DNA of 58,564 nucleotides, the filler included, from Stramenopiles sp. TOSAG23-6 (lineage: Eukaryota), in NCBI GenBank assembly GCA_900128565.1. It is 2 parts of 2 records of this genome, joined end to end, with 100 filler letters (N's around TTAATTAATTAA, not from the genome) between each part and the next. Parts side by side here need not be neighbours in the genome. Positions count along the whole stretch, not along the records: positions 1 to 29,239 come from LT635972.1; positions 29,340 to 58,564 come from LT635973.1. One strand, given 5' to 3'. Under the pieces are notes generated by a model. The model was not told the DNA's origin. It saw only the letters and a list, made by a program, of their open reading frames with translations, and did no database searches. The position numbers and the translations under genes were made by a program. Position 1 is the first letter of the stretch; every line of letters begins with the position of its first letter. Shown one piece after another: positions 459 through 58,564 of this stretch.

Positions 459-2054
459 ATGGTAGCAGGGTGGTATCAGGATTTACAAACCGTAAATATT
501 CAGACATATAAACTTGATAATGAGGTAACACCAACACCTCGAAGTTCTAGACCGCAATTAGTGCCTAAAACAGCTATTTCAGTTCCACCAAAAATACTTT
601 CCACGAAAAACGCTCAACAGCATTGTTCATATAAATACAAGCCTTCTTACAATAACTTTGATATTTCCACATGGCCTTCAAAAGCACAGGGTTCTGGAAA
701 AAATGGAGTTATAGAAAAAGAGAACAACGCATCTACAATAGCCAATTTGAATATGGAAAACCAGTTTTCAGATGCAGTACCAGAACCTCCAGTGTTCGCG
801 AAAAGTAAAGAAAGTATCTTAAAGTACAATTTGCCTCATAAAACAAATAGTTACCCTCCTCCACCGGAAGGGCATCCACCATCCTCCGCTTTGCGTTTAG
901 AAAAGTTGCAGCTGCATGAAAAAGTACTTTTGTTTAGACGTGGACAAACTCGAAATAATTCGAAAAGTAGAACAGAATTCAGAGGGCGGAAGGCAATGAT
1001 GCGACTCAGAAGAGACAGAGAAAATAATCGTTTAAAACATCTGGCAATACAAATGAAGAAAAAGGATAAAATACAGCGTATGCAGCTTGCTAAAAAACAA
1101 CCAAGAATGGGAGATTTAAAAAAACTCCGAGCAAACCAAATAATAACCTTTTGTCGCAAGAAATATTCTGTTAGAGAAAATGATATTTCTCAGCATTCTG
1201 CTGTAGATGGAGAGCGGAATGTATCTGATATGGATAAAAGGGAAAGGTATAAGCGAGATAATAACAGTGTTGCAAAATCCGATGAAAGCAAAAGTAATTG
1301 TGTGAGAAATAAGAAATCTTATGAAAGCAAAAGTAATTGTGTGAGAAATAAGAAAAAGGGAATGAATAGGAGTGATTGTACCGAAAAACCTGATAAATTT
1401 AAGGATGTAAAAATAAGAAAAACGGAAAAGAATAGGAATAATGCTATTCATCGTGTTGCCTTCTTGGAAAATGAATTGCGCCAGGCAAAAACAGATGCTA
1501 TCGATTTTGCTAAGCGTGCTGCAGAAGATGCTACAAAACTTCGCAAGACAATAGTACAACTTCAAACAGAGAATGTTCATTTACGCTGCCAATTAGAAGC
1601 ATGTATGTTTTGTTTTTTTTCAAATTCCATTTTTTGTTCGTACGAAATTTTGTACCTAACGATTTTTTTTGAAATATTTTTCCAAAATACATTATTATCA
1701 CAGAAAGGCAAGTACGAAAAGTGTAATAACCGTTCATTAGAACAAAACAAAAATACAAATATTTCTATTAATGGAAAAATAGTAAGTAAAATATCTGATC
1801 ACAAGACAAAAATATCAAAAGGAGAAAAAGTACAAAGTCAAGAATGTTGCACCACTGAAAGTAATGTAGATAGTAAATTTCAAACAGCTGTATCGATAGC
1901 CCGTGCAGAAGTAAAGCTGCAACTCGAAGAATTGAGTCAAAGTGTGAATTTTGAGAAGAAAAACTATTTTGAGAAGAGTATTTCTGAAAACATTCCAAAT
2001 TCTTTATCGTCTTTATCAATTCACCCGTCAAGAAATGCCCCAACTATTCATTAG
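459..2054 (+). CDS. Hypothetical coiled-coil/low-complexity protein; exons 459-1602, 1693-2054
   Basis: Long ORF that reads through a stop-free 90-nt family intron (F/I-rich junk peptide CMFCFFSNSIF...). Confidence 0.65.
   Translation: MVAGWYQDLQTVNIQTYKLDNEVTPTPRSSRPQLVPKTAISVPPKILSTKNAQQHCSYKYKPSYNNFDISTWPSKAQGSGKNGVIEKENNASTIANLNMENQFSDAVPEPPVFAKSKESILKYNLPHKTNSYPPPPEGHPPSSALRLEKLQLHEKVLLFRRGQTRNNSKSRTEFRGRKAMMRLRRDRENNRLKHLAIQMKKKDKIQRMQLAKKQPRMGDLKKLRANQIITFCRKKYSVRENDISQHSAVDGERNVSDMDKRERYKRDNNSVAKSDESKSNCVRNKKSYESKSNCVRNKKKGMNRSDCTEKPDKFKDVKIRKTEKNRNNAIHRVAFLENELRQAKTDAIDFAKRAAEDATKLRKTIVQLQTENVHLRCQLEACMFCFFSNSIFCSYEILYLTIFFEIFFQNTLLSQKGKYEKCNNRSLEQNKNTNISINGKIVSKISDHKTKISKGEKVQSQECCTTESNVDSKFQTAVSIARAEVKLQLEELSQSVNFEKKNYFEKSISENIPNSLSSLSIHPSRNAPTIH
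1603..1692 (+). other. Family intron, GT-AT, 90 nt
   Basis: GCAT|GTATGT...CGTACGAAATTTTGTACCTAAC...AAATATTTTTCCAAAATACAT|TA; removal gives LEA-LLSQ in frame. Confidence 0.8.
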
Positions 2055-2154
2055 AAAAAGTAGAAATTATCAAGAAATGCCCTGAAGTATTCATTAGAAA
2101 AGGTAGAAATTATCGAGAAATGCCCTGAAGTATTCATTAGAAAAGGTAGAAATT
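2030..2154. repeat. Tandem repeat, 3 x 42-43 bp, across stop codon
   Basis: AGAAATGCCC...TATTCATTAGAAAARGTAGAAATT at 2031, 2073, 2116. Confidence 0.9.
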
Positions 2155-2385
2155 GTACCAATATAATTAAAAATCGCAGTAAAATTGTTTATAAAATTTT
2201 TTTGATCATTCTTCAATACAAGAGAAAACTATTTAAGGAATTCGAAGTAGCTTCATATATAGTACAGTACATGTGCTGTATGTAATATATATATGTACAA
2301 AAACAGTGTCATAGGGTAGGATTTAGTTAGAATATTTATTATCAATTTTAACTTGTGATTGAAATTTTCTAAAAATATTTTTTGT

Positions 2386-3648
2386 TTAGTTAGGATTTTG
2401 ATTTTCAAGGCTAAGATCATTCATTCCACCAGGGGCGAGAAGACCCAAAATTCCATCGCCTGTTTCACCAGTAATAACCATGTTACTGTTTTTGGCAATT
2501 CCAGTAAGCACATCAAGTCTCAAATTCTGTACTTCAAACTCTCTAACATCGGCTAACTGGGTAGCTGCAGACTTTTCAATATTCGCATCCAGTTCGATTA
2601 TTTTTGCTTTTTTCTTAGCCACGTCAACACCTGCCTCTGCAAGAACAAATCGACTTTGATAATTTTGTTCGGCTGTCACTTTGCGAGCGTCACAAGTAGC
2701 TCGCGTACGTTCTACAACCTTTGTCGCATCACGTTTGCCATCTTGTGTAGCAACAGATACTTTCGATTGCGCCTCTACAATAGCTACTTCCGTTCGACTT
2801 GACTCATTTACTATACAAACATCACGATGATTCAATGCAGCTGTAAGTCTTTCCTCTCGATTAATAATTGCTCTTTCAGTCTCCGCAGTTAGATCCTGAA
2901 CAGATCGTTTATTTTCTTTCATAATTTGTTCAAGTCGTTGAGCAGCATCGTCATTGACTTTTCGCATTTCAGCAGTGTGTTTCTTCTCCTGTTGTTCCAT
3001 TTGTGTTTCAAATGATGTTCGTGACTGGAGAGTGGCTTCAAGACTTGCTGGGAGTTGTACATTAGTGATCTTTACATTTTTGATTTCAACACCATAAGGT
3101 TTCATAGTTCTATTCAACCCACCTTTCATCCCTAAAGCAAACTCTTCTCTCAAATCAAGAACTTTCATCACAGGAACCCGATTAACCAGTGCACGGATTG
3201 CTTCTTCAACTTCTGCGGACAACAATTCGTCAAAATTACATGCCCCGAGGTGATAAATAAACTTCTTTGCGTCCTCAATTTTTGGTCCAATTTGGAAAGT
3301 TAAACCAAGGTCAACTTCGACCATAACGTTATCAATTGTTGGACAATTCGCTACAGGATGATTGTATGATATTCCCTTACGTGTAACAATGTGTGAAACA
3401 CGATAATACCCAGGCCAGCAACAAATAAAACCAGTCGGCGCCTCACCCTGATCTTTAAACCATTTTTGGTGCAAGACCCAATAGCCAGAAGGTATTGTGA
3501 TACACGTGTTACAACACCAACCGGAAGTTGGTACAAGAACAATAGGCTGCTCGTTGTTGTTCTCAGCTCTGGCAAATACAGCAGCTGCTTCACCCACTGA
3601 TGATATATGCTTCTGAACAACACGTGATTTAACCTTTCTACGGGACAT
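2386..3648 (-). CDS. SPFH/Band-7 (stomatin-like) domain protein with coiled-coil tail
   Basis: CPTIDNVMVEVDLGLTFQI...EEAIRALV...PYGVEIKNVKITNVQLP is typical of SPFH; first ATG at 3648. Confidence 0.85.
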   Translation of the reverse strand: MSRRKVKSRVVQKHISSVGEAAAVFARAENNNEQPIVLVPTSGWCCNTCITIPSGYWVLHQKWFKDQGEAPTGFICCWPGYYRVSHIVTRKGISYNHPVANCPTIDNVMVEVDLGLTFQIGPKIEDAKKFIYHLGACNFDELLSAEVEEAIRALVNRVPVMKVLDLREEFALGMKGGLNRTMKPYGVEIKNVKITNVQLPASLEATLQSRTSFETQMEQQEKKHTAEMRKVNDDAAQRLEQIMKENKRSVQDLTAETERAIINREERLTAALNHRDVCIVNESSRTEVAIVEAQSKVSVATQDGKRDATKVVERTRATCDARKVTAEQNYQSRFVLAEAGVDVAKKKAKIIELDANIEKSAATQLADVREFEVQNLRLDVLTGIAKNSNMVITGETGDGILGLLAPGGMNDLSLENQNPN

Positions 3649-3944
3649 TGTTTCGCAAAACAAAATTAAAGAAAAAGCGCGCAAGAAAGTAAATACAGTA
3701 ACAATAAGTTCACAACATTTTGGCCAAAAAAAAAGTTTTGGACAGTCTTTATAACACGTGGCAATCTAAATCATCTCACCGATTATTCATTTTTCTAACA
3801 CGAAATCTATTAAATAAGGTCAATAATCGAAGTTAAAAAACGAGTTTATTATATATTTTTTCCTGAAAAAAATGACGTTGTATCACAATATCATTGAATG
3901 TAAGAATTCATCAATGGTAAATATTTTCATCATTATTCTTCTTT

Positions 3945-9940: not shown

Positions 9941-12388
9941 ATGGGAAATCGTGGTAGTCGACGCAGTCGAAATTCCTCTGTATCGACTGCTCGGGATAGT
10001 AATATCCCAGCGAGACTTTCAGGTGTAAATGCCTTCCAAGCAGCGCAAGCTAGAGCACATGCTCAGCATCAGGCTGCCGAATGGAGACAGCGTCATGATG
10101 CTGCGTGTAGTCATAACCAGCCACGACGCCAAGTGGTCGAGACCTCTCCCCAGGTTGTGCATTGTGTACGCTGCCGTCGTGCTCTTATGCCACCGGCAAA
10201 TCATCCACGTTTCCGTTGTCCTTGTGGGCAAATAATGGCAAATCCTTTCATGGTCAATTCGCAACGGGTTAGGTGTCCACGTTGTGCAGGAATTCTAGCT
10301 CCCGTGCCGGGTCTTACACGATTTCGTTGTCCTTGTGGTGCCCTTCTTACTCTTCCATCGGGTGACTTATGGAAGTGTAATATGTGCCAGCATATGAATC
10401 CAGCGCATAGAGCAGGTTGTGAAATGTGTGGCGAAGGTCGATATAGTTCTAGTGATAGTGAAAAAACGAAGGAAGAAGATGAAAAGTATGTTCGTGAGCG
10501 TTCAAGACTTGTGTCTCAAGGCCAACAAGTCTGGATCCGCCGAATGGATAGTACGTTTTCATAATGAATTTCAAATTTTTTTTTTCGTACGAAATTTTGT
10601 ACCTAACAAATTTCGAATTTAATTTTTTTACAAATTTCGAATTTAATTTTTTTTAACAATACATGTGACAATGTGATACGTTGGGCTCGCACGTATGACC
10701 CTGAAAAGTTTGATGAACAAATTGGTAACTTAACTATTCCTACAAATGCTAAGATCAAGGAAGATTTGAAACGGGCAAAAAAGAAGAGTAAAAAGAAAAA
10801 GAACAAAGCAGATAGAATTTGGCAAACGACATTTGTTCGAAGAATGCTGATTATATTAGGAGGAGAAAAGGTTATTGCAGGTTGTTTTGAGCGTGAAGAC
10901 TTTTTAGAAGGTCTTCAGGCATGTGTAGAAGCAATAGGAGATATGTCTGTGAAGGATTTACGGCAAAAACTTACCCAACATTGTGTTGATCATACCAAGT
11001 GTATTGAAAAATCAGAACTCGTGAAAGCTTTACTTGTGAGTGTAACACTAAGAGCATATAAACGAAACGATGGTTGGGTACGTACATTTGTCAGTAAGAC
11101 TACTGAAGGAAAGAAAGTTGCCTCTGATATTAATTGTACTATGGATTGGATACCAGCTAATCAAGCTGAAATCCGATTAAACATTCCTGGTTTGAATATC
11201 AATTTTCAAGAACTAAGGGCAGCAACTTCTTTACCATTCCGACGTAAACTGCAATGGTTCAGACAGCAAGTTGGGCGAATGGGTGTAAGTTGGGCTGCTG
11301 GACATGTCAAAGTTAGGGTGCGAAGAACGCATCTTCTTCAAGATTCATATGACGCTTTCCGAAAGTTGAAACCTATTGATTTTCGTAAAATATTTCAATT
11401 TGAGTTTATTGGTGAACCCGCTCTAGATGCTGGTGGTGTTGCGCGTGAGTGGTTTGCGTTATTAGGACAGTCGATATTCAATGTAGATTTTGGATTATTC
11501 AAATATGGTGATGTTGATAACTTGTGTTACCAGATCAATCCCAATTCTGGTATTGCGAATGATTTACATCTTCAATATTTCCGATTTGCAGGTCGTCTTA
11601 TTGGAAAGTCATTATTCGACCAACAAATTATTCCTGCACATCTTTCTTTACCATTATATAAACATATGTTGGCGTGGCCGATAACTTTAGGAGATTTAGA
11701 ATATGTTGATCAAGAAGTTCGTAGTTCTCTGACTCAGATTTTGAAGTCAGATGATGTTGCAGATTTAATGTTAGACTTTTGCACTACTGTCGAGTCATTT
11801 GGTGAAATTAATGAAATTGAGCTGAAATCTGGCGGAGGTGATTTAGATGTGACAAATGCAAATCGATATGAATATGTAGAATTAATGTTAAAGCACATTA
11901 TGTTGTCACAGACAAAAGACCAATTGTCTCATCTTCTTATAGGATTCTATGAAGTAATTCCTGAAGCTCTAGTAATGATATTTGATTATCAGGAGTTAGA
12001 GCTTTTAATTTGTGGTTTACCTCATATAGATACTGAAGATTGGCAAAATTCTAGTGTATACCGTGGAGTGTTTAATGCCGATCACAAAGTTATTAAATGG
12101 TTTTGGGAAGTAGTCGAGGAAATGAATGAGGAAAAAAGAGCAAGGTTACTTCAATTTGCCACTGGGACTTCCCGGGTCCCAGTACAAGGTTTTAAAAGTT
12201 TACAATCTAATCAGGGGAAAGGTGCTCCATTTTGCTTGAAATCTGTAGCTCGTAAAGGACCAGCTTTTCCTGTGGCACATACGTGTTTCAATAGGATAGA
12301 TTTACCTGAATATAAATCCTTAGAAGAACTGAAGAAATATCTTATGATTGCAATTCAAATGGAAGCTACAGGCTTTGGTCTTGAATGA
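9941..12388 (+). CDS. HECT E3 ubiquitin ligase with N-terminal Cys zinc ribbons and RanBP2-type finger; exons 9941-10550, 10665-12388
   Basis: FIGEPALDAGGVAREWF, LLQFATGTSRVP, PVAHTCFNRIDLP; WKCNMC...CEMCG; spliced CDS 2334 nt in frame. Confidence 0.92.
10551..10664 (+). other. Family intron, GT-AT, 114 nt, with internal ~24-nt duplication
   Basis: GATA|GTACGTTTTCATAATGAATTTC...GTACCTAAC...AACAATACAT|GT; joins two ORFs as MD-S-DNVIRW. Confidence 0.85.
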
Positions 12389-15043: not shown

Positions 15044-15806
15044 ATGATGGTTGTTCACTTTGACTTCTCCACTAAAATCGGTAACAGTAATACCTGTGTC
15101 AATCTCACTTGTGGGCAGACGACCGAAATTTCATTTGCGTTTCCTGCGGATGCTGTCCAGGCAGACGATAATTCGGGGCCTTGGATAGGCTTGTTTGACG
15201 TCGACGCAGCTGGGACACCAACCACATTAGTGACAAAAGACACCTGGTACCGTGCTACAGTCAAGCGAAGTAGCGGATTTTCTTGGGACGCTAAATATAC
15301 AATTTCGGCACCTGGTCACTACGCTATGGTTTTGGTACCAAGAGGTGGATCAGCTAAATCCCCACTTAGTGTCGTTTGTGTGAACGGTGTCGAAATCAGG
15401 GAGCCGAACACCCGCCCACCCCCCCGAACATCTTCAGATAACGAAAAAATTAAAGCCGCACTTCAGGTTTTGACCAAAGAAAGAATTGGAGATTATTCTG
15501 ACCTAATTAACTTTGGATTTAAAAGCACCGCTGCAAAAGTGGAAGGTGATTTAGTGACTATTTGGGTTGAAGAATGTTATGTATGTTTTATATTTTTTTA
15601 AATCGAATTTTTTTTCGTACGCAATTTTGTACCTAACAATTTTTTTTAGATTTTTCTTGAAATATTTTTCCAAAATAAGAGTCGTAGAAAATGGAAATTG
15701 CACAGCAATCCCAAATGACGACGAGGGAGACTACAATAAGACGCCACCAGATGAATCATTTCAATGGCTGGATAATGCAGGTCGCCTCTGTGAACCTGAA
15801 TTTTAA
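15044..15806 (+). CDS. Hypothetical protein, two exons (3' exon frame uncertain)
   Basis: ORF 15044-15580 runs into a family intron; continues as VVENGNC...EPEF* if the acceptor is 15680, or SRRKWKLHSNPK* if the AG at 15679 is used. Confidence 0.55.
15581..15680 (+). other. Family intron, GT donor, acceptor ambiguous (GA at 15680 or AG at 15679)
   Basis: TAT|GTATGTTTT...CGTACGCAATTTTGTACCTAAC...AAATATTTTTCCAAAATAAGA|GTC. Confidence 0.75.
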
Positions 15807-30630: not shown

Positions 30631-33016
<2,386 letters not shown>

Positions 33017-37285: not shown

Positions 37286-37623
37286 AAGATTTTATTAAAA
37301 TCAATAAAGACTCAAACGTATTCATTCACACCTACTCTCTCTCAATTTTAACTTTTTGCTTAATTTTATTGGTCAAAAATGATTTGAAAATCATATACGA
37401 CAAAACATGCACAAAACATCATTCTTTCTTTGACTCGTTTTTTTTAGAACCCTAACCCTAGCTACTGGCAATTTAAGCGCGCTCAGGGAGTCATGCATCA
37501 TGAATTTTTTTATTCCTTGGTGTAGTGCGACACATATACTTCGCGTTCTTCTTCTCGATTTACACACCCATTAATAAGCTTGTCGTGCATGAATAGTTAT
37601 ATATAATTGTAGAATACGTAGTT

Positions 37624-38820: not shown

Positions 38821-39332
38821 CCTAATCCTGAAATTAAAACAAAAAAAATTCAAAAAATGAATCTTTTAACGAAAGCTGAAAGGTAGAAGTAGATCAAGAT
38901 CGAGAGAGTAATGCAATTGTTATTCAACGGATTTCTATTATAAAGACCGAGTGTTAAGTAGTTTAGTGTTATAATATTACTGTTTAATAAATCTCTCTCT
39001 CTCTCTCTTGTCTTTCTCTCATTTCGTAATAATTAATACCTTTTTGTGGTTCAAACCCTAACCCTAGTACGTACTAAGGCTTGTACTATAGTCGACGGTC
39101 ACTCGTCGCGATTTTTCTTCCGCTCCCTCCTCACACATGATTACGTAATGTACCAATGATAAGGACATAAGGCGCACATAAGGCTAACATAGGACTAATA
39201 TACGGATACCGCGACACATCGCGTCATCATCTTATTATCTACACTCACCAAAAGACAGTTTCACTTTGCGATAGTTAGCAACTAAAACATTTCGTTGTAA
39301 AAGAAGGCAAAAAATCCACATATTGCTGTATA

Positions 39333-40628: not shown

Positions 40629-41042
40629 AAGATGGTACGAGCTCGAAGAGAATAAAATGTGATTTTTATTTATTAGTCCTCTTTTTATAATATTAATATA
40701 GACAGATTAGGGTTAGCGTTAGGGTTATTAATAATTTAACAAAATCCTAGGACTATCATTGATTGACCTAAAAGGCCACAGTTCTATTGCTCTCTAGATA
40801 CGTGCAGGACATAATCGGATCACATCGCTTGGTGTTACAACACGAGATTCATCAAGTGGAGCAGTCTGTATTTTATTCAAACCGTTCAACTTCTCAAAAC
40901 TAATATTTATATTTATATGAATCTTTTATATTTTTGTTTTGCATTTCAATTACAATATGAGTTTTTGCACGTGCACATTTCGTACCATAAAATTGTAGCT
41001 AAGTAATTATTCTATCCCAATGACTGTATTTAGTACAAACGC

Positions 41043-42415
41043 TCAGGAGAGAAAATCATCGCTACTAAATCCTAAATCTTTTAGAGATCTCTTTGCACTT
41101 CCCCTTTCAATTGCTTTTGGCATGTATTTTTGGGAAAATATGTCAAATTTGTTTTTTTTTGTTAGGTACAAACATTTTTTTACAAAAAAAAAATGAAAAT
41201 AAAACAAATAAAACATGGCATTTGAATTCTTCCATCCAATCATAAACACGAAAAAAAAAAAGTTGAAAATAAAACAAACATGGTATTTGAATTCTTCCAT
41301 CCAATCATAAACACTATTTGAAAAGTAGCAGGTACGGAATTACTTGCATCTACAGATTTGTTTTCCCTATGAGAATTCGTGTTAATCGTTGTGCAGTCAT
41401 TATCATCTGAATCATATGATGATGATCCATCACCAGTAGTAGTAACATTACTATTTATAGCTTCATTATTTATCTCTGTTGTACTCTCATCTTCGACTGA
41501 GTAAATCGTTTGATATATTGAAGCAGCAGCTAACATTGTTTCACGTTTATTAGACATCATTCGGCCTAGTGATGAATTTGAATCACCCATCGCTTGTAAA
41601 TGCTCCCATAGACTCACAGCATCTTCATAATTACAATGAACTAATTCGGTGTCAACAGTCGGTAATGCAAAACCAGCGTCCACTAATAGACTACCTACGT
41701 CTGATACTTGTGCCAGTGGAGAAGTTCTTGGACTGACTCCACCATCTCGCTCTTGCTCAGCAGCAACAAATGACATTCGAAGTTCGTTCAAAGTAGCACC
41801 ACCAACCATTGCCGCCAAAAATACTCCATTTGGTTTAAGAGCGTTATGTATCTGATGCAGAGCACCGGGAAGATCATTTATCCAATGCAAGCTCATCGAA
41901 CTAAGAATGAGGTCACACGAGTTTTCTTGGAGTGGAAGTGTCTCTTCATCACCGACAACAAATGCAGCACGATGATCACAATTGAATGTACGCTCATCAT
42001 CTTCTGAAAATGATTTACGTAGCCCTTCTCTTTCTTTTGCATCAATATTAGCTGTCTTTTGGGCTCTTTGAAGCATTGCCGAAGAAATATCAATATTTAT
42101 GAGTTTTCCAACTTGACCATGTTCACCTAGATATTTCAGACAGTGTCCGGCATTGCAACCTACATCAACAGCCATAGGGAAATCACGTGAAAGATCATCT
42201 AGTCGTTCAACAAGACTTAGAGCGACATAATCTTTCAAATAATCGAAGGCTTCTGCACGAGGACTACTTGCAGCTCGGTCACGTTGCATTCGTTTATGGT
42301 CACGATCAAAAACAGTCATTGATGGCATGGCTGAAAGTGACTTTGGGCTAAGAAGTCGAGTAGATATGTGCAATCTAAACATATCTAAATGTCGTAAACT
42401 AAATGGTACCGTCAT
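41043..42415 (-). CDS. NDUFAF5: NDUFAF5-like SAM-dependent complex I assembly factor; exons 42415-41280, 41121-41043
   Basis: VFDRDHKRMQRDRAA, DEETLP, SSMSLHWINDLPG, GGVSPRTSP, PATFQIVFMIGWK...PKAIERGSA. Confidence 0.92.
41122..41279 (-). other. Family intron, GT-AT, 158 nt, containing a duplicated exon/donor junction
   Basis: ACCAT|GTTTGT...second GTGTTTATGATTGGATGGAAGAATTCAAATGCCATGTTT...GTACCTAAC...CAAAAATACAT|G; gives WKNSNT-M-PKA. Confidence 0.8.
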
Positions 42416-42712: not shown

Positions 42713-45700
42713 ATGGAAGGCTCTTCAAAGAAGCGTCGGCGTGACGTGAATTCCTCTGTCAAATCGCAACCAAAAGGGAAAAGCCCTTCCCCTAAAACTG
42801 CAGTTTCTGCTAACACGGTAAGCTTCATGCTTACTGAAGCAGGCTGGAGTGGCGAGATGCAAAGAAAAGCTCTCCGGCTTTTTCGTGATGCATGTAATGA
42901 AGAAGATGAGAGTAATTTTAGTGGAGAAACTAGTCAAACTATGGGAGTCGTGACATTTCGTAAAGTTATGCTCAGCTTAGGAGTTCGTATTGAACGTATT
43001 AATTATTATTTCAAAGCGTTTGATCGCAACGGCAGTGGGCGGTTGGACTACAGAGAGTTTCTTTTAGGAATGGCTGCATTAGAATCGGCAAGTTCCGATA
43101 CTGAGACCTCAAATAATGGCGAAAGAAAGTCATCGGTGAAGTCAAAGAATAATTTGCATTCACATGGCTCAAGCATCGGAGGCGCTGCGTGGAGTCAAGA
43201 AAGAGTTCGCTATATTTTCCATCTTTATGATGTAGGTGGTACTGGTTCTCTTAGTTTCGAAGATTTTAAACGCATGGTAAGACATCTACGGCGTTTGTCG
43301 GGTTCTGATGACTCTCCAGAGCCGGTAGAAAAAGAAGCCTTAAAAAGTTTTGATGGAGACCCGACACGAAAAATCACTGAAGAAGAATTTGTTCATGTAG
43401 TGTATGGTGCAGATCAACCCACGTTTAAAAGAGTGACAGGTCTTTTCTCTGCCCCTGTGAGTCTTCGTAGTTTATTCGATGGTAACTTCAATTGGCGTGT
43501 ATACAGTGCATTGGTAGAGCAAGACAACCCTAACCCTACGGAAGAAAATAGTATCCAAACATCAACTTCTGATAAAACTTCAAAGGGAAGAATTTCTGTA
43601 GAAACTAAAATATCAAAACCATCTTTACCAAAACTAAAAAAGGTTGCAAACCATATTTTATCACGTAAAAAACAATTTCAAATGTACACACCAAGAATAA
43701 TTGGTCATTCACAATTGACTCATGCCATGGTGAATGTACGTTTGATATGAATTTCTAATTTAATGTTTTTTTTTATACGAAATTTAGTACCTAACGATTG
43801 TTTTAACTAAAATTTTTTTTCACAATACATTCTCCTAGGCGCCGTCATTCGACAACTTCAGAAGAGTCTCTTCAAGATGCAGTTTCTGATGCTTTGGTTA
43901 GTACAAGCAGTAGAGATAGTAAAAGTCCCCCTCCTCCACCTCCAATAACCTCCAGTACAACAATATCGGTGTCAAATTCGTCAATTATTCGGCTAGATCC
44001 TTATTCTATCTTAGCATATGATAATGGTTTGGTCGTTTCATCTTTAGTGGCAAGTACTGCGATGGTCACAAACATGCATTTAGTTAGAGATATGTCACCT
44101 TTAGTAAAAGACTATGGACCTGACCAATTGTCATTAGGTGTAATAGCAGCTAATAGAATGAATAAATTTGTTTTTGAAGAATTACTACCCGTTGCAGGCG
44201 ATAAAGGAAAGGCAGTGTTTAAACGACTGAAACGATTTCATCATAGTCCAAGAAAACGGGCTCATAGATATAGTATATCTAGTGCATCCGAAACACAATG
44301 TGATGAATTCGAGTGGGAAATACAAAAACGTTTACCTTGCTCATTTGTTTGTGCTTTAGTTCGAGATGTTTTGAAATTAGTAAAGTCTCAACCGACAGTT
44401 ATCAATGCACAATCACCTGTAAAGATGTTTGGTGATATTCATGGTCAGTTACATGATTTACTCTTATTTTTCAAATTATACGGTTTACCTACTCGTACTG
44501 GTAATGGAGATATTGATCTCACTCAATATGTCTTTATTGGAGATTTTGTAGATCGTGGAAGTCATAGTGTAGAAACTATTTTATTATTATTTTCATTAAA
44601 AATCTTGCATCCCAATCGAATCTGGCTCATTCGAGGAAATCATGAAGATCGTGAAGTAAATGAAAATTATGGATTTATGGCTGAATGTCAACAGAAATAT
44701 CCAGAGCCAATGTCAAAAGATGCATTAGATGCTGCTATGGCTGCAGCGATACAACAAGAAAATGAAAGTAGTGAACGATACAGTCCTTCACATGGAATAG
44801 ATTTAGGATTTGACCCCGATACGGCTTGTGAAGGGGATGAAATATATAATTTAATCGAGGTTGTATTTGATCATTTACCACTTGCAGGTGTTGTAGATGA
44901 CAAGGTTCTCTGTCTTCATGGTGGTTTAGGATTAGGGGACTGGACATTAGATGATCTTAGAGCTGTGAAACGCCCTGTTCGTAGTCGGGAAATACGCTCA
45001 GACTCAATGCTTATAAATGTTCTGTGGAGTGATCCTTCAAGAGACGATGAAGTTGAAGGAATATTTAAAAATAGTCGTGGTGGTGATATCGTGACGTTTA
45101 GTCGTCGTGTTGTTGAGGAATTTTGTGAACGCGAAAACATTGAACTAATAGTACGAGCTCATGAACCTTTTCAACAAGGTTTTCACTTTTTTGCGGGAGG
45201 TCGTCTGGCTTCTGTTTTTACAGCGAGAGATTATTGTGGACATCACACAAATGACGGCGCATTTCTTGTATTGCGTCGTGATGGGTTAGTGACTCCACGT
45301 ATCCTCCGAAGTAGTACGCAGACTTTATCTCAAAATTTGTATCCTTTATTTTCAGGTACTGGAAAAGATAATCTACACACAGAAATGAATAATGAATTAC
45401 ATACAACCAGTAATGAAACAGATTGTGATGGAGTATTTCCACCACCATATTCAGAGGAAAACAGTACTAATAAACCCGAAATAAAACGGTGTGCATCAGA
45501 TCCATTAAATGATATTAATACACGTGATGCATTAGAAGCAGCTGGATGGAATGCATCACAATTAGCTCGTGTTCTTACTCTTTTTAAATCTGCTACTTAT
45601 ACTGATGATACGAATAGTGATCCGGACGATGACATACAAAAACATTATATGGATTTGGAACGCTTTACTGCTGTACTAACTCTTCTAGGTGTGCAATCTA

Positions 45701-46562
45701 AACTTGCACAAGTTTATTTTAACGCCATGGATACATCTGGTAATGGGTTTTTAGACTATAGGGAATTTCTCCTTGGCATGGCCGCATTGGACCCAGCTAA
45801 TAAATCAAAAATGCATACATCAGATGATAAATCAGAGGACACTGACGTCATGCATACATCAGATGATACATCAAAAATGCATACATCAGATGACAAATCG
45901 GAGGACACCGACGTCATGGAATCCAATATTGAAAATAGTGAAGAAAACGATGTACCTCAGGCTACCCAAAAGGCTTGGAGTAAAGCTAGAGCTAGGTTTG
46001 TGTTTAGAGTATATGACGTAAATCATGATAAGAAAATTGATTTTCGAGAATTTTGTGGTATGTTGATGCATGTATGTTTTTATGATTCATTTCANTTTTT
46101 TTTTTCAGAGTAAATTTTGTGTCTAACAAACAAATTCAATTTTTTTTTAAATATTTTCCTATAATATATATGGCGTCATTAAAGAAAGAAAATTCTTCAT
46201 TAGCAGATGTTCTCCCAAGAGCATCACGTATTTTTAAACAATTAGGTCTCTATAACACACATCCAGAAAATCCAGAAATCCAAAGTACCTGGTCACCAAT
46301 GAGCGAGAAACAATTTTTAAGTATTGTTAATAAAGTTGAAGTATATGAGGAAGAAAGTGTATCAACGATTACTACACGTGGTAGAAGTAGAAAGCGACAA
46401 AAAAGACGTAAACGGCGTCAAAGTCGAACTCTTCTTCAAACACTTTCCATTGATGAATTATTTCGTGCTCCGCAATCCCCATCGCAAAAGAAGTTGAGCT
46501 GGCCAGTATCAAGAGATGTATCACCTGTCCGGACAGCTTCAAATTACCAACTCTGGAAATAA
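42713..46562 (+). CDS. PPP-family Ser/Thr phosphatase flanked by EF-hand pairs; exons 42713-43735, 43831-46071, 46170-46562
   Basis: GDIHGQ, GDFVDRG, RGNHE, HGG, RAHE, FTARDY; DRNGSGRLDYREF and DTSGNGFLDYREF; spliced CDS 3657 nt. Confidence 0.88.
43736..43830 (+). other. Family intron, GT-AT, 95 nt
   Basis: AAT|GTACGTTT...GTACCTAAC...TTCACAATACAT|TCT; joins two ORFs in frame. Confidence 0.85.
46072..46169 (+). other. Family intron, GT-AT, 98 nt
   Basis: CAT|GTATGTTTT...TTTTGTGTCTAAC...AAATATTTTCCTATAATATAT|ATG. Confidence 0.8.
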
Positions 46563-46949: not shown

Positions 46950-48197
46950 CGTGTATATCACAACTTTGTCTTTAGGTTCAACTGAAATGTCACATATATT
47001 GTGGAAAAATATTTTTTTTTTTAAATTTATTTTGTTAGGTACGAAATTTTTATAAAAAAATAAATTTAGATAAAAATTGAAAAAAACTAAAACGTACTTC
47101 GCCCAGACGATATATAAAATGAAAATTGACATAAAAAATACGCTGACATAAATATCAAGACATATATTGTTGGAAAATATTTCAAAAATTTGATTGTTTT
47201 GTTAGGTACAAAATTTCCAAAAAAAAAAAAATTCAATATTTGAAATTGTAAAACATGCATGCCAAAGAGCATGTCCATGGATATCAAAGCCAAATAAGCT
47301 CTTCATTTGAGTACAAAGACATCTGTCAAGAATCCAAAAGATGACAGCGAAAATTGCGCAAATCAATGTATTTTTGGTAAATATGTCACATTTGATTTTA
47401 TTTGTTAGGTACAAAATTTTCTATTTAAAAAAAATGTAGGTATAAAACATGTAAAATGGTATCGTACGTGATTTTCTATATAAATTTCCACAGTTTTCTT
47501 CTTCTTTTTTTGATAAACTTTTGTATATCATGCTAGAGGCCAAGGTCACACCAGGTAATGTAATTACTGTAAATATGTGACAGAATATTGGATATTTAAT
47601 ACTAATGATAGGTTGTACACACATCACTGCTGCTATAAAAATATTACTGGTGACGAGACGATGAATACGAGCACTCATCCAGGATGTACATGGATTTCTA
47701 TGTTTCGGACCAAATAGAAATATCATTCCATATAAATTCAGCCAGATTATAGACAATTCGTCAATAATTTGACCTAAAAGTGATAATTGTGCGTGAAAAT
47801 ACATTGAGCCTAAAGCAATGAGTATCATGCACCCAGGTATAAAAGGTGAACTCTTGATAAAGGTTGTGAAACCAAGTTTAAAGACAATAAAAAATGTCAT
47901 CACTGCAGCAAGAAGCATAACTACATTAGTGACAACATTCCAAAATTCAGCTATTTGAGGATGCACATCATAGTTACTTTCACACCAATCAATTGAAGAA
48001 GAGTGTGGCTTAAGAGACCCAGAAATTAACTTTCGACCTTCAGGAGTAAAACAATAAATCAAAGAAGACAGTATTGCAAGTATGCAAACAGCATTGTCAA
48101 TTTTCGCTGTAGCATGCTTCTGAAGGGCAGGGTTTTTTATAGATTTAAATATGTCTAATACAGACGTAGTAGTTTCAAGCATTTTTGATGTACTCAA
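46890..48197 (-). CDS. Alkaline ceramidase (CREST family), 4 exons (48197-47468, 47365-47259, 47161-47098, 46993-46890)
   Basis: SSIDWCESNY, IAEFWN, GSMYFHAQL, QIIDEL, FWILDR, HALWHVL; spliced CDS 1005 nt. Confidence 0.92.
46994..47097 (-). other. Family intron, GT-AT, 104 nt
   Basis: CGAA|GTACGTTTT...TTCGTACCTAAC...TTCCACAATATAT|GT. Confidence 0.85.
47162..47258 (-). other. Family intron, GC-AT, 97 nt
   Basis: TGGCAT|GCATGTTTT...GTACCTAAC...CCAACAATATAT|GTC; restores HALWH-VLIF. Confidence 0.9.
47366..47467 (-). other. Family intron, GT-AT, 102 nt
   Basis: TCAC|GTACGA...TTTTGTACCTAAC...CAAAAATACAT|TG; gives RKS-L-ICAIF. Confidence 0.78.
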
Positions 48198-48891: not shown

Positions 48892-49065
48892 TGAGGAAAT
48901 ATTAGTAGTATTTCAACGTGTTTTCATTGTATTTAAAAATCTAGTTATAGTAAAANTNAANCNTTTTTTNGCNATTTTNANCACGAAATTTTAAGATTTG
49001 ATAGATAAAATAATAAAATCCCGATATGCCAAAAAATCAACCAAATGCAAAATAATTACTTTATT

Positions 49066-50314
49066 TTAATCTGAAACATGTTTACTCTCAAGACGGTATT
49101 GCTCTATACGCTCTGCTGCATCTCTATAGTTGCGAGCTACGTGTGCTTTAATGACCAAACCCTTTGTCAGTTTAACCCAGCGATTGATTATAGATGCTCT
49201 ATATTTCATTTGACTAACCTCAATGCGTTTCTGTTCACGGCACATCCAAGCATCTGTTACTGTTTCAACATCATCTTTTGCAACAATAATACCTCGAATG
49301 GAAGGGTATGCTCTTCCTGCTTTTACTTCAAAACCTACATATTTTGTGAAAAAATATTTCAAAATAAAAAAAATATTTTTATTAGGTACAAAATTTCGTA
49401 TGAAAAAATAAATAAATTAAAAATTGAAAATTGAAAACCTACGACAGCTTCAACATGTTCGATGCCTAATATTGCTGCAACTTGATTAACTCCTTTTAGA
49501 TCTACATGAGCAGATCCAAAAGGCAAATGACCACGTGACCAAAGCTCCCAATTCCCATGCTCATTACGAGGCAATCGACCATTTGATGCAATTGGTGGGG
49601 GTATATACATTTCCGTTTGCCAAATACCGTATGTATTTTGGAAAAATATTTTCAAAAAAAAAATCGTTAGGTACAAAATTTCGTATGAAAAATAAATTCG
49701 ATTTTTTTGTAAAAAAAAAATAAAACATACATAAATGCGCGATTTGAGCCAAACGTTGTATTATTTTGTTCTTTTCTACTTGTTGATTTTTTTTCCGCTT
49801 GAATTTGTAGTTCTAATTCCTGTTCATATAATTCATCTTCCCATTCTTCTCGAGACGTAAACGCATCAACCTGACCCTGCGCTTTCATTGTTGTCTGAGC
49901 TAGTCTTAGGTTATATTTGTTGAGTAACTGAGAATTCAAAGAAGCTCTATTTGATTTATTCTGGTTTGAATTAGGAGAAGAATCACTATTGTGTTGTACT
50001 TGAGGACGTGTATTCGTTACTTTAGGAGTTCCAGGAAAATCCACTGGATCCTTTTTATCATCATCATTAAACGTAATATCTGTTAGGGTTAGGGTAGACG
50101 TACGAAGTCTACCTTTTTTGGTCGTCTGCATTTGGAGATCTATGTTTTTCTCAGAAGCGTCACTGACATTCTTTTCTTGTATTGATTCGATTACTATACC
50201 AGTATCGATACTATCTGATCCATCATCCACATAATATAAACTATCCAAATCCGGCAAATCAAGTCCAGCTTCGTCAACTGAAGCGGAAGAACGAGCTCGG
50301 AAACGACTATCCAT
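49066..50314 (-). CDS. Rad4/XPC C-terminal (BHD3) fragment; 3 exons, possible frameshift
   Basis: YGIWQTE.Y.PP...GRLPRNEHGNWEL...LP.G..H...VA..LGI..VEAVVGFE...YP...GIIV and RWVKLTKGL; N-terminal XPC domains not seen. Confidence 0.75.
49339..49442 (-). other. Family intron, GT-AT, 104 nt, 9-bp direct repeat GTAGGTTTT
   Basis: GTC|GTAGGTTTTC...GTACCTAAT...TTCACAAAATAT|GTAGGTTTTG; gives EAV-VGFEV. Confidence 0.85.
49631..49730 (-). other. Family intron, GT-AT, 100 nt
   Basis: TTAT|GTATGTTTT...CATACGAAATTTTGTACCTAAC...TTCCAAAATACAT|AC; gives L-Y-GIWQT. Confidence 0.8.
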
Positions 50315-50616: not shown

Positions 50617-52495
50617 TTATTTTTCATTTCTACCTCTTGCACGCCCAGCATGTTTGTCCATGTAAGGTTGTACTAGAAGATATCTCCCAAGAGCTCTTTC
50701 AAGCCACACAGCATTATTACCACTATATAATGTGTCATCTTCTTCAGGTTCATTTGCAACTGTATATTTTGACTTGATTTCGTGTTTATTAATATTTGTT
50801 TGTTCAAGTTGATTGGCTTCAGAATTAATATAATTCTGTATATAACCAAAAGGATCACTAGAAAATCTACGTATTCGATTTCGTTGTTCTTGTGCCTTTA
50901 GCATTGCGCTTGCAGCTTCTTCCATTTCTTGCAACACAACTTCTGCATTGGACCAACGTTTTTCCTCTTCTTCTTTCAAAGATTTTGCTTTCATTTCCAG
51001 TAAATCGTTAAACATTTTAACACTTAGTCTCGACCATTCAAAAGATTTTCCATTTGTCATTGTAATTTTTTTATTCATAAGATTGCTCGATTCATGTGTG
51101 GACTCGTTGTGCTGCGTCATCTGGTTGTCACTATATTTATGCTGCTGTGCATTATCTTGAGTATGTGTTCCGAAGTGATCATCGTCACCAGTAGCCAAGT
51201 TATCAACTGTCTTGATAGTATTCATCAATGCCTTTTTGCATTTCTTTACAAAATTAACTATATCTTCTTCTTTAGCCTTGGCAATAGCATCGTTATTTGT
51301 CCATGCCTCGAAAATCATTGGAACTTCATCATCAGATTTTTCTCCAAATTCATTTTCAGTTGGTTTTTCCCTAGGTGTACCGGGTAACACAACTGGTACA
51401 TCGTATAATTTCATACGTTTCTGAGAATCTGAATTAGCTTTAACATTTACACGATATTTAATTGTCACAGGAGGAAGTGGACCAAGATGATTTTCAAGTT
51501 TTTGAACTAATTCATCAATCGCTATGCTTGATATATTTTCTCTGCCACCACCAAAAATTTCTTTTAAATTTTCATCCAAAATGATCATTTGATACTTTTT
51601 TTTATCTGTTAGCTTATTTACGGATATATACTCCAAAAGTAATCGTAATACACCAGCTCGAGTCTCATTTTGAACTTGAAGAATTCGTGACAACGTAGGG
51701 GAAAGTCGGACTCTCGTTGGATTGTTTTTTAGAAATAATGATATTTCTACGTTAACGTCTTGAGTTCATGTTAGAAAAAAAAATATGTTTTAGACTTTGA
51801 AAATTGTTAGGTACAAAAATTGGTACTAAAAAAAAACTGAANTGAAATGAAAACGTACCGGCTCGTTTCACTTCAAAACCATCAGTGTCTTCATGTACTG
51901 CATCTCTATTCCATTCGAGTAAGTTATTCATCCAATAGTTTTCATCTTGAGTTGACATAGACGTTTTTGATTTGTCTCTGCAATCTTGTGAGTTTTCTTT
52001 TTCATGGTTGTCGAACCTCGCATGTGAGAGCGTTGTGTTGGCGACATTCAAACGTTTCTGGTATAGCTTGCCCTCTGGATCTATACATACTACTACCTTT
52101 CGAAAAAACGAAGAAAATTTTGGTGGTCGTTGACCGTCGTCTTCGATAGCATCGTTCACTTCAGCTCCTAAAATTTCACCCTCAATACGAAGAGTCCACG
52201 AAGGAGGGTGACTACCATTGGGTAACTTGTGATCAAAGCGATATACGCGCGCATCCTTTACAACGCTTGCTTGTTCATCGGGGGTGTTTATCACACGGAT
52301 ACGCAATGTTTGTATATTCTGCTTGTTCTCACCTTGAATTACTTTAATAGCTGCTTCTTGTGAATCACGAATATGCGAATCTAATGTACGTTCTAATAAA
52401 AACAAAGAGCGTCCTAACTTTGATGCGCGCAACACACTACATTTTTCCATGACTTTACTACCTTGGTATTTCCTCTTATTGCGTCTGAGACTCAT
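50617..52495 (-). CDS. SWI/SNF subunit BAF60/SMARCD (SWIB domain); exons 52495-51859, 51767-50617
   Basis: SWTLRIEG, KFSSFFRK, LEWNR, DGFEVKRAG, RLSPTL...YI..NKL, FSSDPFGYI; spliced CDS 1788 nt. Confidence 0.9.
51768..51858 (-). other. Family intron, GT-AT, 91 nt
   Basis: GCCG|GTACGTTTTCA...TTTTGTACCTAAC...TTCTAACAT|GA; gives KRA-G-TQDV. Confidence 0.85.
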
Positions 52496-55565: not shown

Positions 55566-56917
55566 TTATTTACATCCTGGATCCACCCCAATAGCAACAG
55601 TTACAATACCAATAAAAGTTCCAACTAGAGAAGCAAGAGCTACATGTATTATGAAAAAATATTTTTTTTGTAAAATTTGTTAGGTACAAAATTGCGTACG
55701 AAAAAAAAACATAAATTCAAAATTGAAAAAAAAACATACATATTTTGTCGTATTTTGTAAGGTAGAAGTGACAGTTTCATCTTTCTCATCTTCTTTATTT
55801 TTTGAAGCTTGGTATGCTAATTGTGTATTGTTTAAACATGTACGAAGGAGTGTAGCATATTCTATTTCCAACATCTCATCAGTGCAACTACGATCTGTTA
55901 CGTATATTGTGAAAAAATATTTCTTTTTGTAAAATTTGTTAGGTACGAAATTCCGTAGAAAAAAAAAATAAATTCGAAATTGAAAAAAATTAAACATACA
56001 TTTTGAGAACTTAACAAAAGGTGGGAAATCCAATTATGAAAATCGTCTACTGTAGTCACTCTATCTCCAAATTCATCAACTCGCGAAAGAAAATCTTCAG
56101 CAACTTGCTTTTCATCTATTTTTTGTGTGATTAAGCCTAGCTCTTGGACAAATCGACGAACGTCAGAAGTGGCGACTGCAGCATTTTTTTCTTTGGCCCA
56201 AGAGAAACGAGAATAAAATAATTCGGACACCATTTTTTTGCACTCAGGAGGGAGGACAATAACACCAAAAATAGAACTGAGTTTTGTTGCCAGTACTTCG
56301 TCCGACCATTTACGAACTTTTATCATATCACAAATTGTAGAAGTGAACAATTCACAACTTATCGTGCTGGTTTTAAATAATTTCTCGCCTTCAAATAGAC
56401 TTTCTGTTACAGCATTAGCAATATCAACTGGAATGAGATCTTTTTCATGTTTTTTACTTTTGGACAAAACACGAGCATATACGCGATTGATAGCATTTAC
56501 CCTGTCAATTGTATAATTTTCATCCACTTCAATTGAAGACGTTTTACCATTAATATCAGTAGTTGTTGTTTCACTCTCAACTGTAGTATTTGTAGTCGTC
56601 ACAATAGCATCTTTATTCTCTGTTTCTCCTCTTTTTGAGTATGCAACTTCTTCTAAATCCGCGAAAAAGGGAAGTTTCCGCAAAAACCTTTCACCCCAAA
56701 TAGGATCTTTGCTCCGTTTATAAGTTACAAAACTGGCCCAAGTAAGAGGAATGAGAACAGCTCCACTTACAAGTCTAATGTTTTCCCATTTATGAGATTC
56801 TAGCGGTGGAGGAGGTGGTGGAGGTGTCCGTTTGGAAATGCTTCTTATACAGCTAGGAAACTTATATTGCGTCAGTTGGGCACGATTGTATACTTGACGA
56901 ATACCAAGGTGAAACAT
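55566..56917 (-). CDS. Hypothetical, probably mitochondrial membrane protein; exons 56917-56000, 55901-55740, 55643-55566
   Basis: Presequence-like start, TM segment, C-terminal TM in last exon; spliced CDS 1158 nt. Confidence 0.7.
55644..55739 (-). other. Family intron, GT-AT, 96 nt
   Basis: TAT|GTATGTTTT...CGTACGCAATTTTGTACCTAAC...TTCATAATACAT|GTA. Confidence 0.85.
55902..55999 (-). other. Family intron, GT-AC, 98 nt
   Basis: AAT|GTATGTTT...TTCGTACCTAAC...TTCACAATATAC|GTA. Confidence 0.82.
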
Positions 56918-57122: not shown

Positions 57123-58249
57123 ATGATGCTCTTTTTATGCTTTCTTTTCTCTACTATATTAATAAATCCTTGTCAATGTTCTAGGCTAGATATTGCTTTT
57201 GACCTTGATAAATGTCTTTTTACAACCGAATATTTTGATAATGGTATTGAAGCTGCTGTGGCACTGACAGAGATGAAAGATATAGGATATGAAGTATTCG
57301 GTCCAACGAAGTTTACAGAACCGGAACGTAGTCAAATTGTTAGAACTATGGGAATCGGGGCATTTTATTCGATTACAATCTTTCGACCATATTTATTCAA
57401 ATTCTTACAGAATTTGAGTAGAGATAAAGACATTCACCTTCACATCTTTACCTCAACCTTTGACCAGGGTTTCCCTTTGCCTATAATAGAAAGAATCAAA
57501 GAAAAAACCGGTGTTTCATTTGAATTATTTTACGTCACTAGTTATACACAGAAGGATTTGAAAATTCTCGTACAGCAAATTCCTGGTGCAAGTTTGAAAC
57601 GATTTTTATTGGTAGACGACAATGTGCAATCCTTCAAAAATAGTCAATTATCAAATGGGATCCGTATCCCTGTATTTGAGCCAGGCCGAAACACACCAGA
57701 TCCATTTCAACATGATACAACATTAATAAAGGTATTAATGAAAATATTTAATCTCTCAAAGTTTAACGACGTTCGTTCAAAAAAAGGTACTCTACAATAT
57801 GTTATAAACCAGTATATGTATGTTTTCATCATTAGGGTTAGGGTTAGTATATTTGTTTTTGTACCAATTTTCTTACCTAACAAATTTGGAATTTTAAAAA
57901 TATTTTTTCACAATATATTTTGGCTTTTCAAACATTTCTCGAAAAACATGGGTCACAGTATACGAATAGACTACGTGAATTGAATGTACCACCTAAAAAA
58001 GCGATGAAGCATGTAGACTTCATCAAAGGTAAAGTGAGTCAAAGTTGGTTTGGCGTCAAATGTCAAAATATTCTCGACCAAAAAAATTACAACACGAAAA
58101 ACATGAAAATAAAGAGTGAAGAAGCAAAAAGCTCAAAAGAAATTTGCCAACTCCATCTTCAGAAATCGTTTTTTTTTGGGTCAAGTTTCTGTGTATGGTG
58201 TGAGAAGACTCAAAGTTGTGTGACAAATGATAGAGAGTGCCGTGTGTAG
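57123..58249 (+). CDS. FCP1/NIF-like HAD phosphatase with signal peptide; exons 57123-57817, 57919-58249
   Basis: IAFDLDKCL, RPYLFKFL, IFTS, KDL, LLVDDN, NGIRIPVF, DTTL; spliced CDS 1026 nt. Confidence 0.8.
57818..57918 (+). other. Family intron, GT-AT, 101 nt, containing TTAGGG repeats
   Basis: TATAT|GTATGTTTTCA...TTAGGGTTAGGGTTAG...TTACCTAAC...TTCACAATATAT|T; joins two ORFs in frame. Confidence 0.85.
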
Positions 58250-58256
58250 TGCTGTG

Positions 58257-58333
58257 CGTATCTTTGGATTCCGTACCATTTTTTTGTACTTATTTTTTTG
58301 GTATGAAAAAATCGTACGGAATCCAAAGATACG
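58257..58333. repeat. Inverted repeat/hairpin, 33-bp arms (outer 20 bp perfect)
   Basis: CGTATCTTTGGATTCCGTAC at 58257-58276 pairs with GTACGGAATCCAAAGATACG at 58314-58333. Confidence 0.9.
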
Positions 58334-58513
58334 TAGAACACTGGCCGTGTGCGTGATTGAGCATATTATCCAGTAAACATTAACTCAATAAAAGTGCACA
58401 CGAAAAATACTTCAAACAAAAAGTTGAATCAAATTTATTTTTTTCGCTATTTTTTTTAAAAAAGAATTACAAAACGATCAGTGTTTTAAAATAAATCATT
58501 ACAACGATTGAAA

Positions 58514-58564
58514 ATGTATTTTGGAAAAATATTTCAAAAAAAAATTCGTTAGGTACAAAATTTC
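58514..58564 (-). other. Family intron, 3' half only (ends AT), cut by window end
   Basis: Minus strand GAAATTTTGTACCTAACG...GAAATATTTTTCCAAAATACAT|. Confidence 0.75.

Follow-up and report, generated by a model that had tools for sequence, protein, structure and literature searches.

What kind of element interrupts genes only in the sense orientation, begins like a textbook intron and mostly ends in AT? The question is raised by a 58,564-nucleotide (nt) stretch of Stramenopiles sp. TOSAG23-6 (assembly GCA_900128565.1), hereafter the window, which consists of two concatenated contigs separated by filler at 29240-29339 (44 N, TTAATTAATTAA, 44 N). Dispersed through it is a family of short inserts that a preliminary description, made from the sequence alone, took to be introner-like introns, spread from a mobile ancestor and removed by a spliceosome with altered 3′ splice-site recognition. 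The existence of a repeated, AT-ending, intron-like family is confirmed here, and the interpretation first placed upon it is partly supported. We consider that the inserts are probably introner-like, U2-type spliceosomal introns with a relaxed last base, forming one repeated family.

The family is conspicuous at the level of simple word counts. Its core, TTTTGTACCTAAC, occurs 28 times in the window with up to two mismatches, against 3.0 occurrences expected, and none of 100 shuffled sequences reached that number. A search of the window with an nhmmer profile made from strong copies returns 26 members at E<1e-6, comprising 23 complete copies, two cut by the contig linker and one cut by the window end. 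A 27th, divergent member (31822-31962) was missed by the profile and found by hand, and a scan for additional donor-like sites produced this one extra intron only; the total agrees with the figure of at least 27 given originally. Complete copies measure 87-114 nt, with a single outlier of 172 nt. Their alignment reproduces the consensus as first written, namely GTAYGTTTT, a variable T-rich stretch, (C)RTACGAAATTTTGTACCTAAC, a variable spacer and a closing AAATATTTTTTCACAATAYAT. Pairwise identity among copies has a median of 0.69, compared with 0.54 after shuffling, and reaches 0.88 at most. The conserved portion amounts to about two thirds of the intron length, the 5′ site and a branch-like box being far better conserved than the remainder. 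The members are as follows, with the basis of each assignment in brackets where one applies.

1603-1692, + strand: GT-AT family intron, 90 nt, in a 531-codon open reading frame (ORF) without Pfam match, read through in frame (profile, frame)
10551-10664, + strand: GT-AT family intron, 114 nt, HECT ubiquitin-ligase gene (profile, frame)
15581-15679, + strand: GT-AG family intron, 99 nt, or 107 nt via a TAG 8 nt downstream (alternative end by inspection)
26980-27079, + strand: GT-AT family intron, 100 nt, donor GTACTT (profile, register listing)
29186-29239, - strand: family intron of the Vps16 gene, 3′ half only, truncated at the linker, end ATACAT (profile)
29340-29424, - strand: family intron of the CDPK-like gene, 5′ part only, truncated at the linker (profile)
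29577-29678, - strand: GT-AT family intron, 102 nt, within the CDPK-like kinase domain (structure alignment)
31510-31620, + strand: AT-AT family intron, unique register, 111 nt, NDR kinase gene (orthologue collinearity)
31822-31962, + strand: divergent GT-AG relative, 141 nt, NDR kinase gene (orthologue collinearity)
32416-32504, + strand: GT-AT family intron, 89 nt, NDR gene, into which the public model P0244 reads and stops (collinearity)
32551-32722, + strand: GT-TT family intron, 172 nt, with the branch-like region duplicated internally, NDR gene (profile, collinearity)
32818-32914, + strand: GC-AT family intron, 97 nt, NDR gene (collinearity)
33316-33410, - strand: AT-AC family intron, unique register, 95 nt, nucleotide-sugar transporter gene (frame)
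37141-37230, + strand: GT-AT family intron, 90 nt, PP1 phosphatase gene (orthologues P0122 and P0242)
41122-41218, - strand: family copy with 5′ end GCCATG (xC-AT), about 97 nt, past the methyltransferase stop (stop by inspection)
43736-43830, + strand: GT-AT family intron, 95 nt, EF-hand/phosphatase gene (frame)
46072-46169, + strand: GT-AT family intron, 98 nt, same EF-hand/phosphatase gene as the 43736 copy (frame)
46994-47097, - strand: GT-AT family intron, 104 nt, ceramidase gene (profile, frame)
47162-47258, - strand: GC-AT family intron, 97 nt, ceramidase gene (frame)
47366-47452, - strand: family intron, AC-AT of 87 nt or GT-AT of 105 nt (GTACGA 18 nt upstream), ceramidase gene (frame)
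49339-49442, - strand: GT-AT family intron, 104 nt, with a 9-nt direct repeat GTAGGTTTT at both ends and an alternative GT-AG reading
49633-49730, - strand: GT-AC family intron, 98 nt, whose frame needs an end 2 nt before the family-aligned AT
51768-51858, - strand: GT-AT family intron, 91 nt, SWIB/BAF60-like gene (frame)
55644-55739, - strand: GT-AT family intron, 96 nt, 88% identical to its neighbour in the gene (frame)
55902-55999, - strand: GT-AC family intron, 98 nt (frame)
57818-57918, + strand: GT-AT family intron, 101 nt, NIF/CTD-phosphatase-like gene, with telomere-like GGGTTAGGGTTAG inside
58514-58564, - strand: family copy truncated at the window end, 3′ part only, end ATACAT, no identifiable host (profile)

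The most alike complete copies, those at 55644-55739 and 55902-55999, are adjacent introns of one gene, and their 88% identity suggests local duplication or gene conversion between introns.

The placement of the copies is as regular as their sequence. At least 15 unrelated host genes carry them, and every one of the 25 copies with an identifiable host lies in the sense orientation, the copy at the window end being unassignable (two-sided sign test, p = 3e-8, run as 26/26 with that copy counted as sense). None is intergenic in the window, though 22% of it lies outside long ORFs; those of at least 120 codons cover the other 78%. The reading frame is open on both sides of the family-aligned ends in 22 of the 23 complete copies (26980-27079 by inspection), although in some the downstream stretch is short, since the gene ends or the next intron comes. 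The 23rd, at 41122-41218, starts 21 nt past the stop codon of the methyltransferase ORF and appears to lie in the 3′ untranslated region rather than in coding sequence. The original claim that copies sit inside coding sequence in sense orientation thus survives as regards orientation and the absence of intergenic copies, with this copy as the exception to its coding placement. The sense-only placement argues for removal at the RNA level.

The genes of the window are ordinary eukaryotic ones, for the HECT ligase, CDPK-like and NDR kinases, Vps16, a nucleotide-sugar transporter, PP1, a methyltransferase, an EF-hand phosphatase, a ceramidase, a SWIB protein, a NIF phosphatase and others. For three of them, those for the CDPK-like kinase, PP1 and NDR kinase, removal of the inserts restores collinearity with homologues exactly, bearing out the earlier statement that excision rebuilds the proteins. 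The CDPK-like gene was read straight through its 102-nt insert, with stops as X, and aligned with two solved CDPK/CaMK structures. Query residues 266 and 303 fall opposite residues 201 and 204 of the chain in the first structure and 227 and 230 in the second, so that 36 query residues stand opposite two homologue residues, giving 34 extra codons, or 102 nt. In PP1, the JGI protein P0122, from a 964-nt contig (132/140 identical), and the EukProt gene model P0242 (257/294) are both contiguous through ...NAGGM|MIMR... and leave a gap of 30 residues that coincides exactly with the 90-nt insert. A protein search with PP1 in the ‘near’ length range gave nothing above 73% identity, and alignment of the PP1 read-through with entries of the PDB drifted into junk encoded by the insert.

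The NDR kinase gene provides the most demanding case, its five introns having five border types (AT-AT of 111 nt, GT-AG of 141, GT-AT of 89, GT-TT of 172 and GC-AT of 97). Their removal leaves a 584-codon ORF that contains a 46-nt mini-exon, ends with the conserved C-terminal motif and is collinear with the full-length orthologues P0245 (361/551 identical) and P0246 (342/531). Because three of the five lengths are indivisible by three, the reading frame tests them in its own right; the 111-nt insert falls in a variable loop, so its length is not fixed by PDB homologues. Elsewhere the borders are backed by ORF continuity, except at 41122-41218, and at the ceramidase junction the match to PDB entries is too weak to choose between AC-AT of 87 nt and GT-AT of 105 nt. 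A public model of the same NDR gene, P0244 (30652-33010), is right at the GT-AG intron, encodes junk at the AT-AT intron, ends inside the first GT-AT intron (32416-32504) and also skips two real coding stretches as false introns. Since it runs into the introns, the annotation did not recognise them.

The closest named relatives of two window proteins are stramenopiles; those of the NDR kinase are mostly oomycetes, with a EukProt entry bearing a marine-stramenopile label in its name as the top match. The NDR and PP1 orthologues P0245 (g5707.t1) and P0242 (g5709.t1) are two gene numbers apart in one EukProt genome and, as two genes lie between the NDR and PP1 genes in the window, local gene order seems to be conserved between the two.

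Where exactly do the inserts begin and end? For each of the 23 complete copies, every border position giving an identical joined product was listed. Several registers are possible in many copies, since AT is a frequent ending of the upstream exon and G(T) a frequent beginning of the downstream one; GT...AT is the sole register common to all copies. On this basis there are 13 GT-AT, two GC-AT and two GT-AC introns and one each of AT-AT, AT-AC, GT-TT and GT-AG; the remaining two are AC-AT (or GT-AT with the donor 18 nt upstream) and an unclear xC-AT. GT-AT is therefore the commonest pair, as had been proposed, at 13 among 23 copies rather than the 16 among 24 first counted. The 5′ end is close to the U2-type splice site GT(R/Y)NGT, with G at +1 in 19 copies, T at +2 in 19, A at +3 in all 23, G at +5 in 22 and T at +6 in 23, while positions +6 to +9 are T in 20-23 copies. 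CTAAC, which matches the U2-type branch consensus CTRAY, is present in 21 of the 23 copies, as read from the printed copies and the alignment, and has T-runs on both sides. Its distance to the 3′ end is 33-59 nt in 22 copies, the 172-nt copy being the outlier at 116 nt.

The 3′ end is where the family departs from the U2-type rule of a terminal AG. Its final dinucleotides are AT in 18 copies, AC in three, TT in one and AG in one; at -1 there are 19 T, three C and one G, -2 is A in 22 copies and -3 is C or T in 22. AG thus terminates one of 23 family copies, or two of 24 once the divergent relative is included. The latter (31822-31962) shares the 5′ end, the TTGTACCCAAC box and a recognisable 3′ block and finishes in AAAATAG, while the copy at 15581 finishes in AAAATAAG; at the corresponding place relatives have AAAATACAT. 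The family had been described as lacking the AG acceptor: that is right for the majority, which end in AT, and too strong for these two members and for 49339-49442, which can also be read as GT-AG. That two members end in AG indicates that AG is still usable, and the change looks like a relaxed last base, A being followed by T more often than C, and C more often than G. Among the 21 copies with an ATATT, the last such motif stands 19 nt ahead of the 3′ cut in 17, and what best predicts the cut is position inside the conserved 3′ block.

The exon flanks are also biased. In 13 of 23 copies the upstream exon closes with AT (background 0.089, p=1e-8) and in 15 of 23 the downstream exon opens with G (p=3e-6); the AT-flanked copies are nearer to the consensus (Mann-Whitney p=0.036). 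These AT|G flanks could equally represent a 2-bp target duplication, an exon-side splice consensus or reverse splicing at AT|G.

How, then, might the inserts be removed? From sequence evidence we infer removal from pre-mRNA, because the copies are sense-only with none intergenic, because they have a classical 5′ end and a CTAAC box and because they occur in a lineage which, to our knowledge, lacks germline/soma processing. GTAYGTTTT and the internal TTTTGTACCTAAC box resemble the strong 5′ splice and branch sites of intron-poor eukaryotes. The 3′ cut would come where the closing block AAATATTTTTTCACAATAYAT ends, usually after A-T and in fewer copies after A-C or A-G, and mostly 19 nt past ATATT, so that the acceptor would be set by position in the conserved 3′ element together with the A at -2, the last base having been relaxed from G to T, then C, then G in order of preference. 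The most likely machine would be a U2-type spliceosome in which the last base is read differently, at the second step and/or by U2AF-type recognition, and the family would have spread recently through transcribed genes. A stronger form of this proposal, which we put forward only tentatively and think somewhat less likely to be true than false, is that in this uncultured marine stramenopile lineage the last intron base required by the major spliceosome has shifted from G to U, C and G still being accepted, whereas the 5′ site and branch box have stayed yeast-like, and that a genome otherwise almost free of introns has recently been filled by a single introner family devoid of transposon hallmarks.

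Several considerations weigh against the reading as U2-type, introner-like introns with a relaxed last base. The analysis covers a single 58-kb stretch. We know of no precedent for G(+1) paired with U(-1) at the second step as a dominant U2-type class, and GT-AT is documented mainly as a rare U12-type subtype. The proteins P0122 and P0242 prove the join, not the process, and may stem from intron-less alleles or relatives and not from spliced mRNA. Five of the 23 copies contain an AG between CTAAC and the 3′ end, and other YAT triplets precede the site used, such as the TAT inside ATATT, while copies with AATATAT use the second TAT; simple scanning, or a rule of ‘first YAT after the branch’, therefore fails. 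Comparison of the first 30 nt with the reverse complement of the last 30 gave no terminal inverted repeats (mean 7.26, against 7.13 after shuffling), nor was there any conserved or unusually stable structure (0 consensus pairs; mean minimum free energy (MFE) z -0.28), so that mobility would be without a known mechanism. Finally, the similarity along whole introns could partly reflect functional constraint rather than recent common origin. Terminal inverted repeats and an end-pairing hairpin had both been suspected by eye, and were ruled out by the shuffle comparison and by RNAalifold.

The main rival is the minor, U12-type spliceosome or a derivative of it, which tolerates RT-AN termini and chooses its 3′ site by distance from the branch. 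The family borders do agree with RT-AN termini, the 5′ end GTATGTTTT is one base away from the U12-like GTATCTTTT given for Physarum, and a constant interval separates the 3′ cut from a conserved block. The internal signals point the other way. The U12-type 5′ motif RTATCCTT is absent, with G at +5 in 22/23 and T at +6 in 23/23; a T-rich tract is present; and the ACCTAAC box is too far from the end, at 33-59 nt in 22 copies and at 116 nt in the 172-nt copy, for a U12-type branch motif (TCCTTAAC), which usually lies roughly 10-20 nt from the 3′ end. We regard a U12-type origin as unlikely.

Improbable, in our estimate, is RNA removal that bypasses the usual splice-site chemistry, as for the nonconventional introns of euglenids, with GTAYGT and CTAAC persisting as ancestral leftovers. 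Non-canonical borders and the short direct repeats at the junctions (AT in 13/23, G in 15/23) would suit such a process, and junction repeats resembling target-site duplications are described for introns of euglenids and of Amoebophrya (PMC11282704, PMC7789003). The hallmark of nonconventional introns is a hairpin pairing the two ends, and RNAalifold finds 0 consensus pairs here; mean MFE z is only the -0.28 given above, one of 23 copies falls below -2 and end-to-end complementarity equals that of shuffles. A 5′ site and a branch-like box conserved far above the rest of the intron are likewise unexpected for leftovers.

DNA-level excision of the kind undergone by the internally eliminated sequences of ciliates, an assembly artefact and disabling insertions in dead genes can be set aside together as very improbable: the assembly is indeed fragmentary, with scattered Ns and a contig linker, but sense orientation in 25 of 25 assignable copies is unexpected for excision, which should be independent of strand, and for artefact alike, at least 15 conserved-domain genes are affected and all are restored exactly, the ORFs are closed by standard stop codons, and the named relatives are stramenopiles, for which we know of no germline/soma genome split.

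Returning to U2-type introns with a relaxed last base, how did so many similar copies arise? The family probably spread recently through transcribed genes, on account of whole-intron similarity in at least 15 unrelated genes, a closely matching pair of copies at the linker and the unbroken proteins of orthologues. Both contig ends at the linker fall inside family copies, although such copies make up about 4% of the window; the assembly therefore breaks at this repeat, which hints at many near-identical copies genome-wide. The two truncated copies agree at 39 of the 40 overlapping bases that can be seen (counted by eye), even across the spacer that usually varies, and sit in different genes (Vps16 and CDPK-like) and in different frames. 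Relatives’ NDR and PP1 proteins are unbroken at all six intron positions, though these are proteins only and could reflect spliced mRNA or correct gene models. The mobile ancestor proposed at the outset is hence favoured by similarity across genes, by the linker pair and by unbroken orthologues, and gains nothing from inverted repeats, which are absent, or from the AT flank, which is ambiguous.

Searches beyond the window returned no relatives of the family. A 15-mer scan of metagenome and viral contigs gave 231 loci, none with a copy matching the family profile at E<=1e-3, and these are chance matches; a two-part family pattern had 0 matches in genome contigs and 0 in viral contigs. Within the window, Rfam and tRNA scans gave no match, and no genes for small nuclear RNAs or splicing factors are present.

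Which known systems does the family resemble? Intron-poor eukaryotes such as yeast have strong-signal introns of the form GTATGT ... TACTAAC ... YAG. Introns there, as here, are few and short in a gene-dense genome, with a near-invariant GTAYGT and a CTAAC box; they end in YAG, whereas those described here end in YAT or YAC and are conserved over about two thirds of their length. The introners of Micromonas, Aureococcus, fungi and dinoflagellates are also comparable: many near-alike short introns occur in unrelated genes and in transcribed regions only, orthologous proteins of relatives are unbroken at the intron sites and assembly contigs break inside copies. Introners have canonical splice sites, many with terminal inverted repeats and target-site duplications, and are reported in several protists including a stramenopile (PMC11282704). 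The present family has mostly AT, AC or TT ends, no detectable terminal inverted repeat and an ambiguous AT flank.

Non-AG acceptors at genome scale, including 3′ AT and 3′ AC, are described in Fritillaria borealis, where their basis is placed in diverged U2AF1/U2AF2 paralogues and a possible link to introner transposons is discussed; in that animal 95% of introns escape GT/AG, the 5′ ends too are non-GT and borders are highly diverse (PMC13326754). Fritillaria is an animal, in contrast to the stramenopile protist considered here, whose introns have a textbook-strong 5′ site and branch box and a dominant GT-AT pair. In the marine protist Amoebophrya, more than 60% of introns validated by RNA-seq are non-canonical and there are repeated families with short direct repeats at the junctions; no dinucleotide pair dominates, and introners carry inverted repeats of 8-20 nt that form hairpins (PMC7789003). 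Here one pair dominates and there is no hairpin. Non-canonical U12-type introns (GT-AT, AT-AT, AT-AA and AT-AG) have the same RT-AN termini and an apparently distance-set 3′ site, but differ in 5′ motif, branch distance and T-rich tract and form a tiny minority in known genomes as opposed to the main class here. Nowhere in the literature searched is GT-AT described as a principal class of introns, nor are odd introns described for this lineage. Genome papers on uncultured marine stramenopiles are silent on unusual splice sites in their main text, though their supplements could hold a note of this kind.

The AG at the intron end is among the most constant signals of eukaryotic genes, and large-scale breaks with it are known in few lineages, namely Fritillaria, Amoebophrya and euglenids. 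In those three, both intron ends and the internal signals are degenerate; in the present family only the last base differs, which would isolate one recognition step for study, involving U2AF1-type factors, Prp8, Prp18, Slu7 and the G+1/G-1 contact. If the last base has been re-specified as suggested above, this would be a natural system in which the second-step contact between G(+1) and G(-1) has been replaced, with intron gain by a mechanism independent of terminal inverted repeats, for example reverse splicing at AT|G sites; confirmation in RNA would mean a splicing machinery that recognises intron ends in another way. In any case, a high-copy family of introns that lacks terminal inverted repeats bears on the routes of intron gain. 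There is a practical side as well: gene finders bound to GT-AG mis-model such genes, so proteomes and functional surveys of an abundant group of ocean protists may be systematically damaged.

As to the DNA itself, the window is gene-dense, AT-rich and eukaryotic in character, with a G+C content of 33-40% along its length. Clusters of single Ns at 26311-26416 and 48956-48981 represent low-quality consensus, and sequencing error could account for small indels elsewhere, for instance where 49633-49730 has its unusual GT-AC end. Word sampling of 30400-40399 found that three seawater-metagenome runs from one study contain 39-71% of the words, and three metatranscriptome runs 6-11%, figures with no bearing on the introns.

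The window is also rich in a telomere-repeat-like box, CCCTAACCCTA, which occurs 15 times with at most one mismatch where 0.27 occurrences are expected. Most of the boxes lie between genes (16047, 25665-25681, 34369, 37450, 39056, 40708-40724, 50562 and 52625), and others inside genes or an intron (43528, 44927, 50084, 55049 and 57833). Many are in short intergenic spacers beside gene starts, and CCCTAACCCTA is suggested to be a promoter element like the plant telo-box rather than a sign of telomeres.

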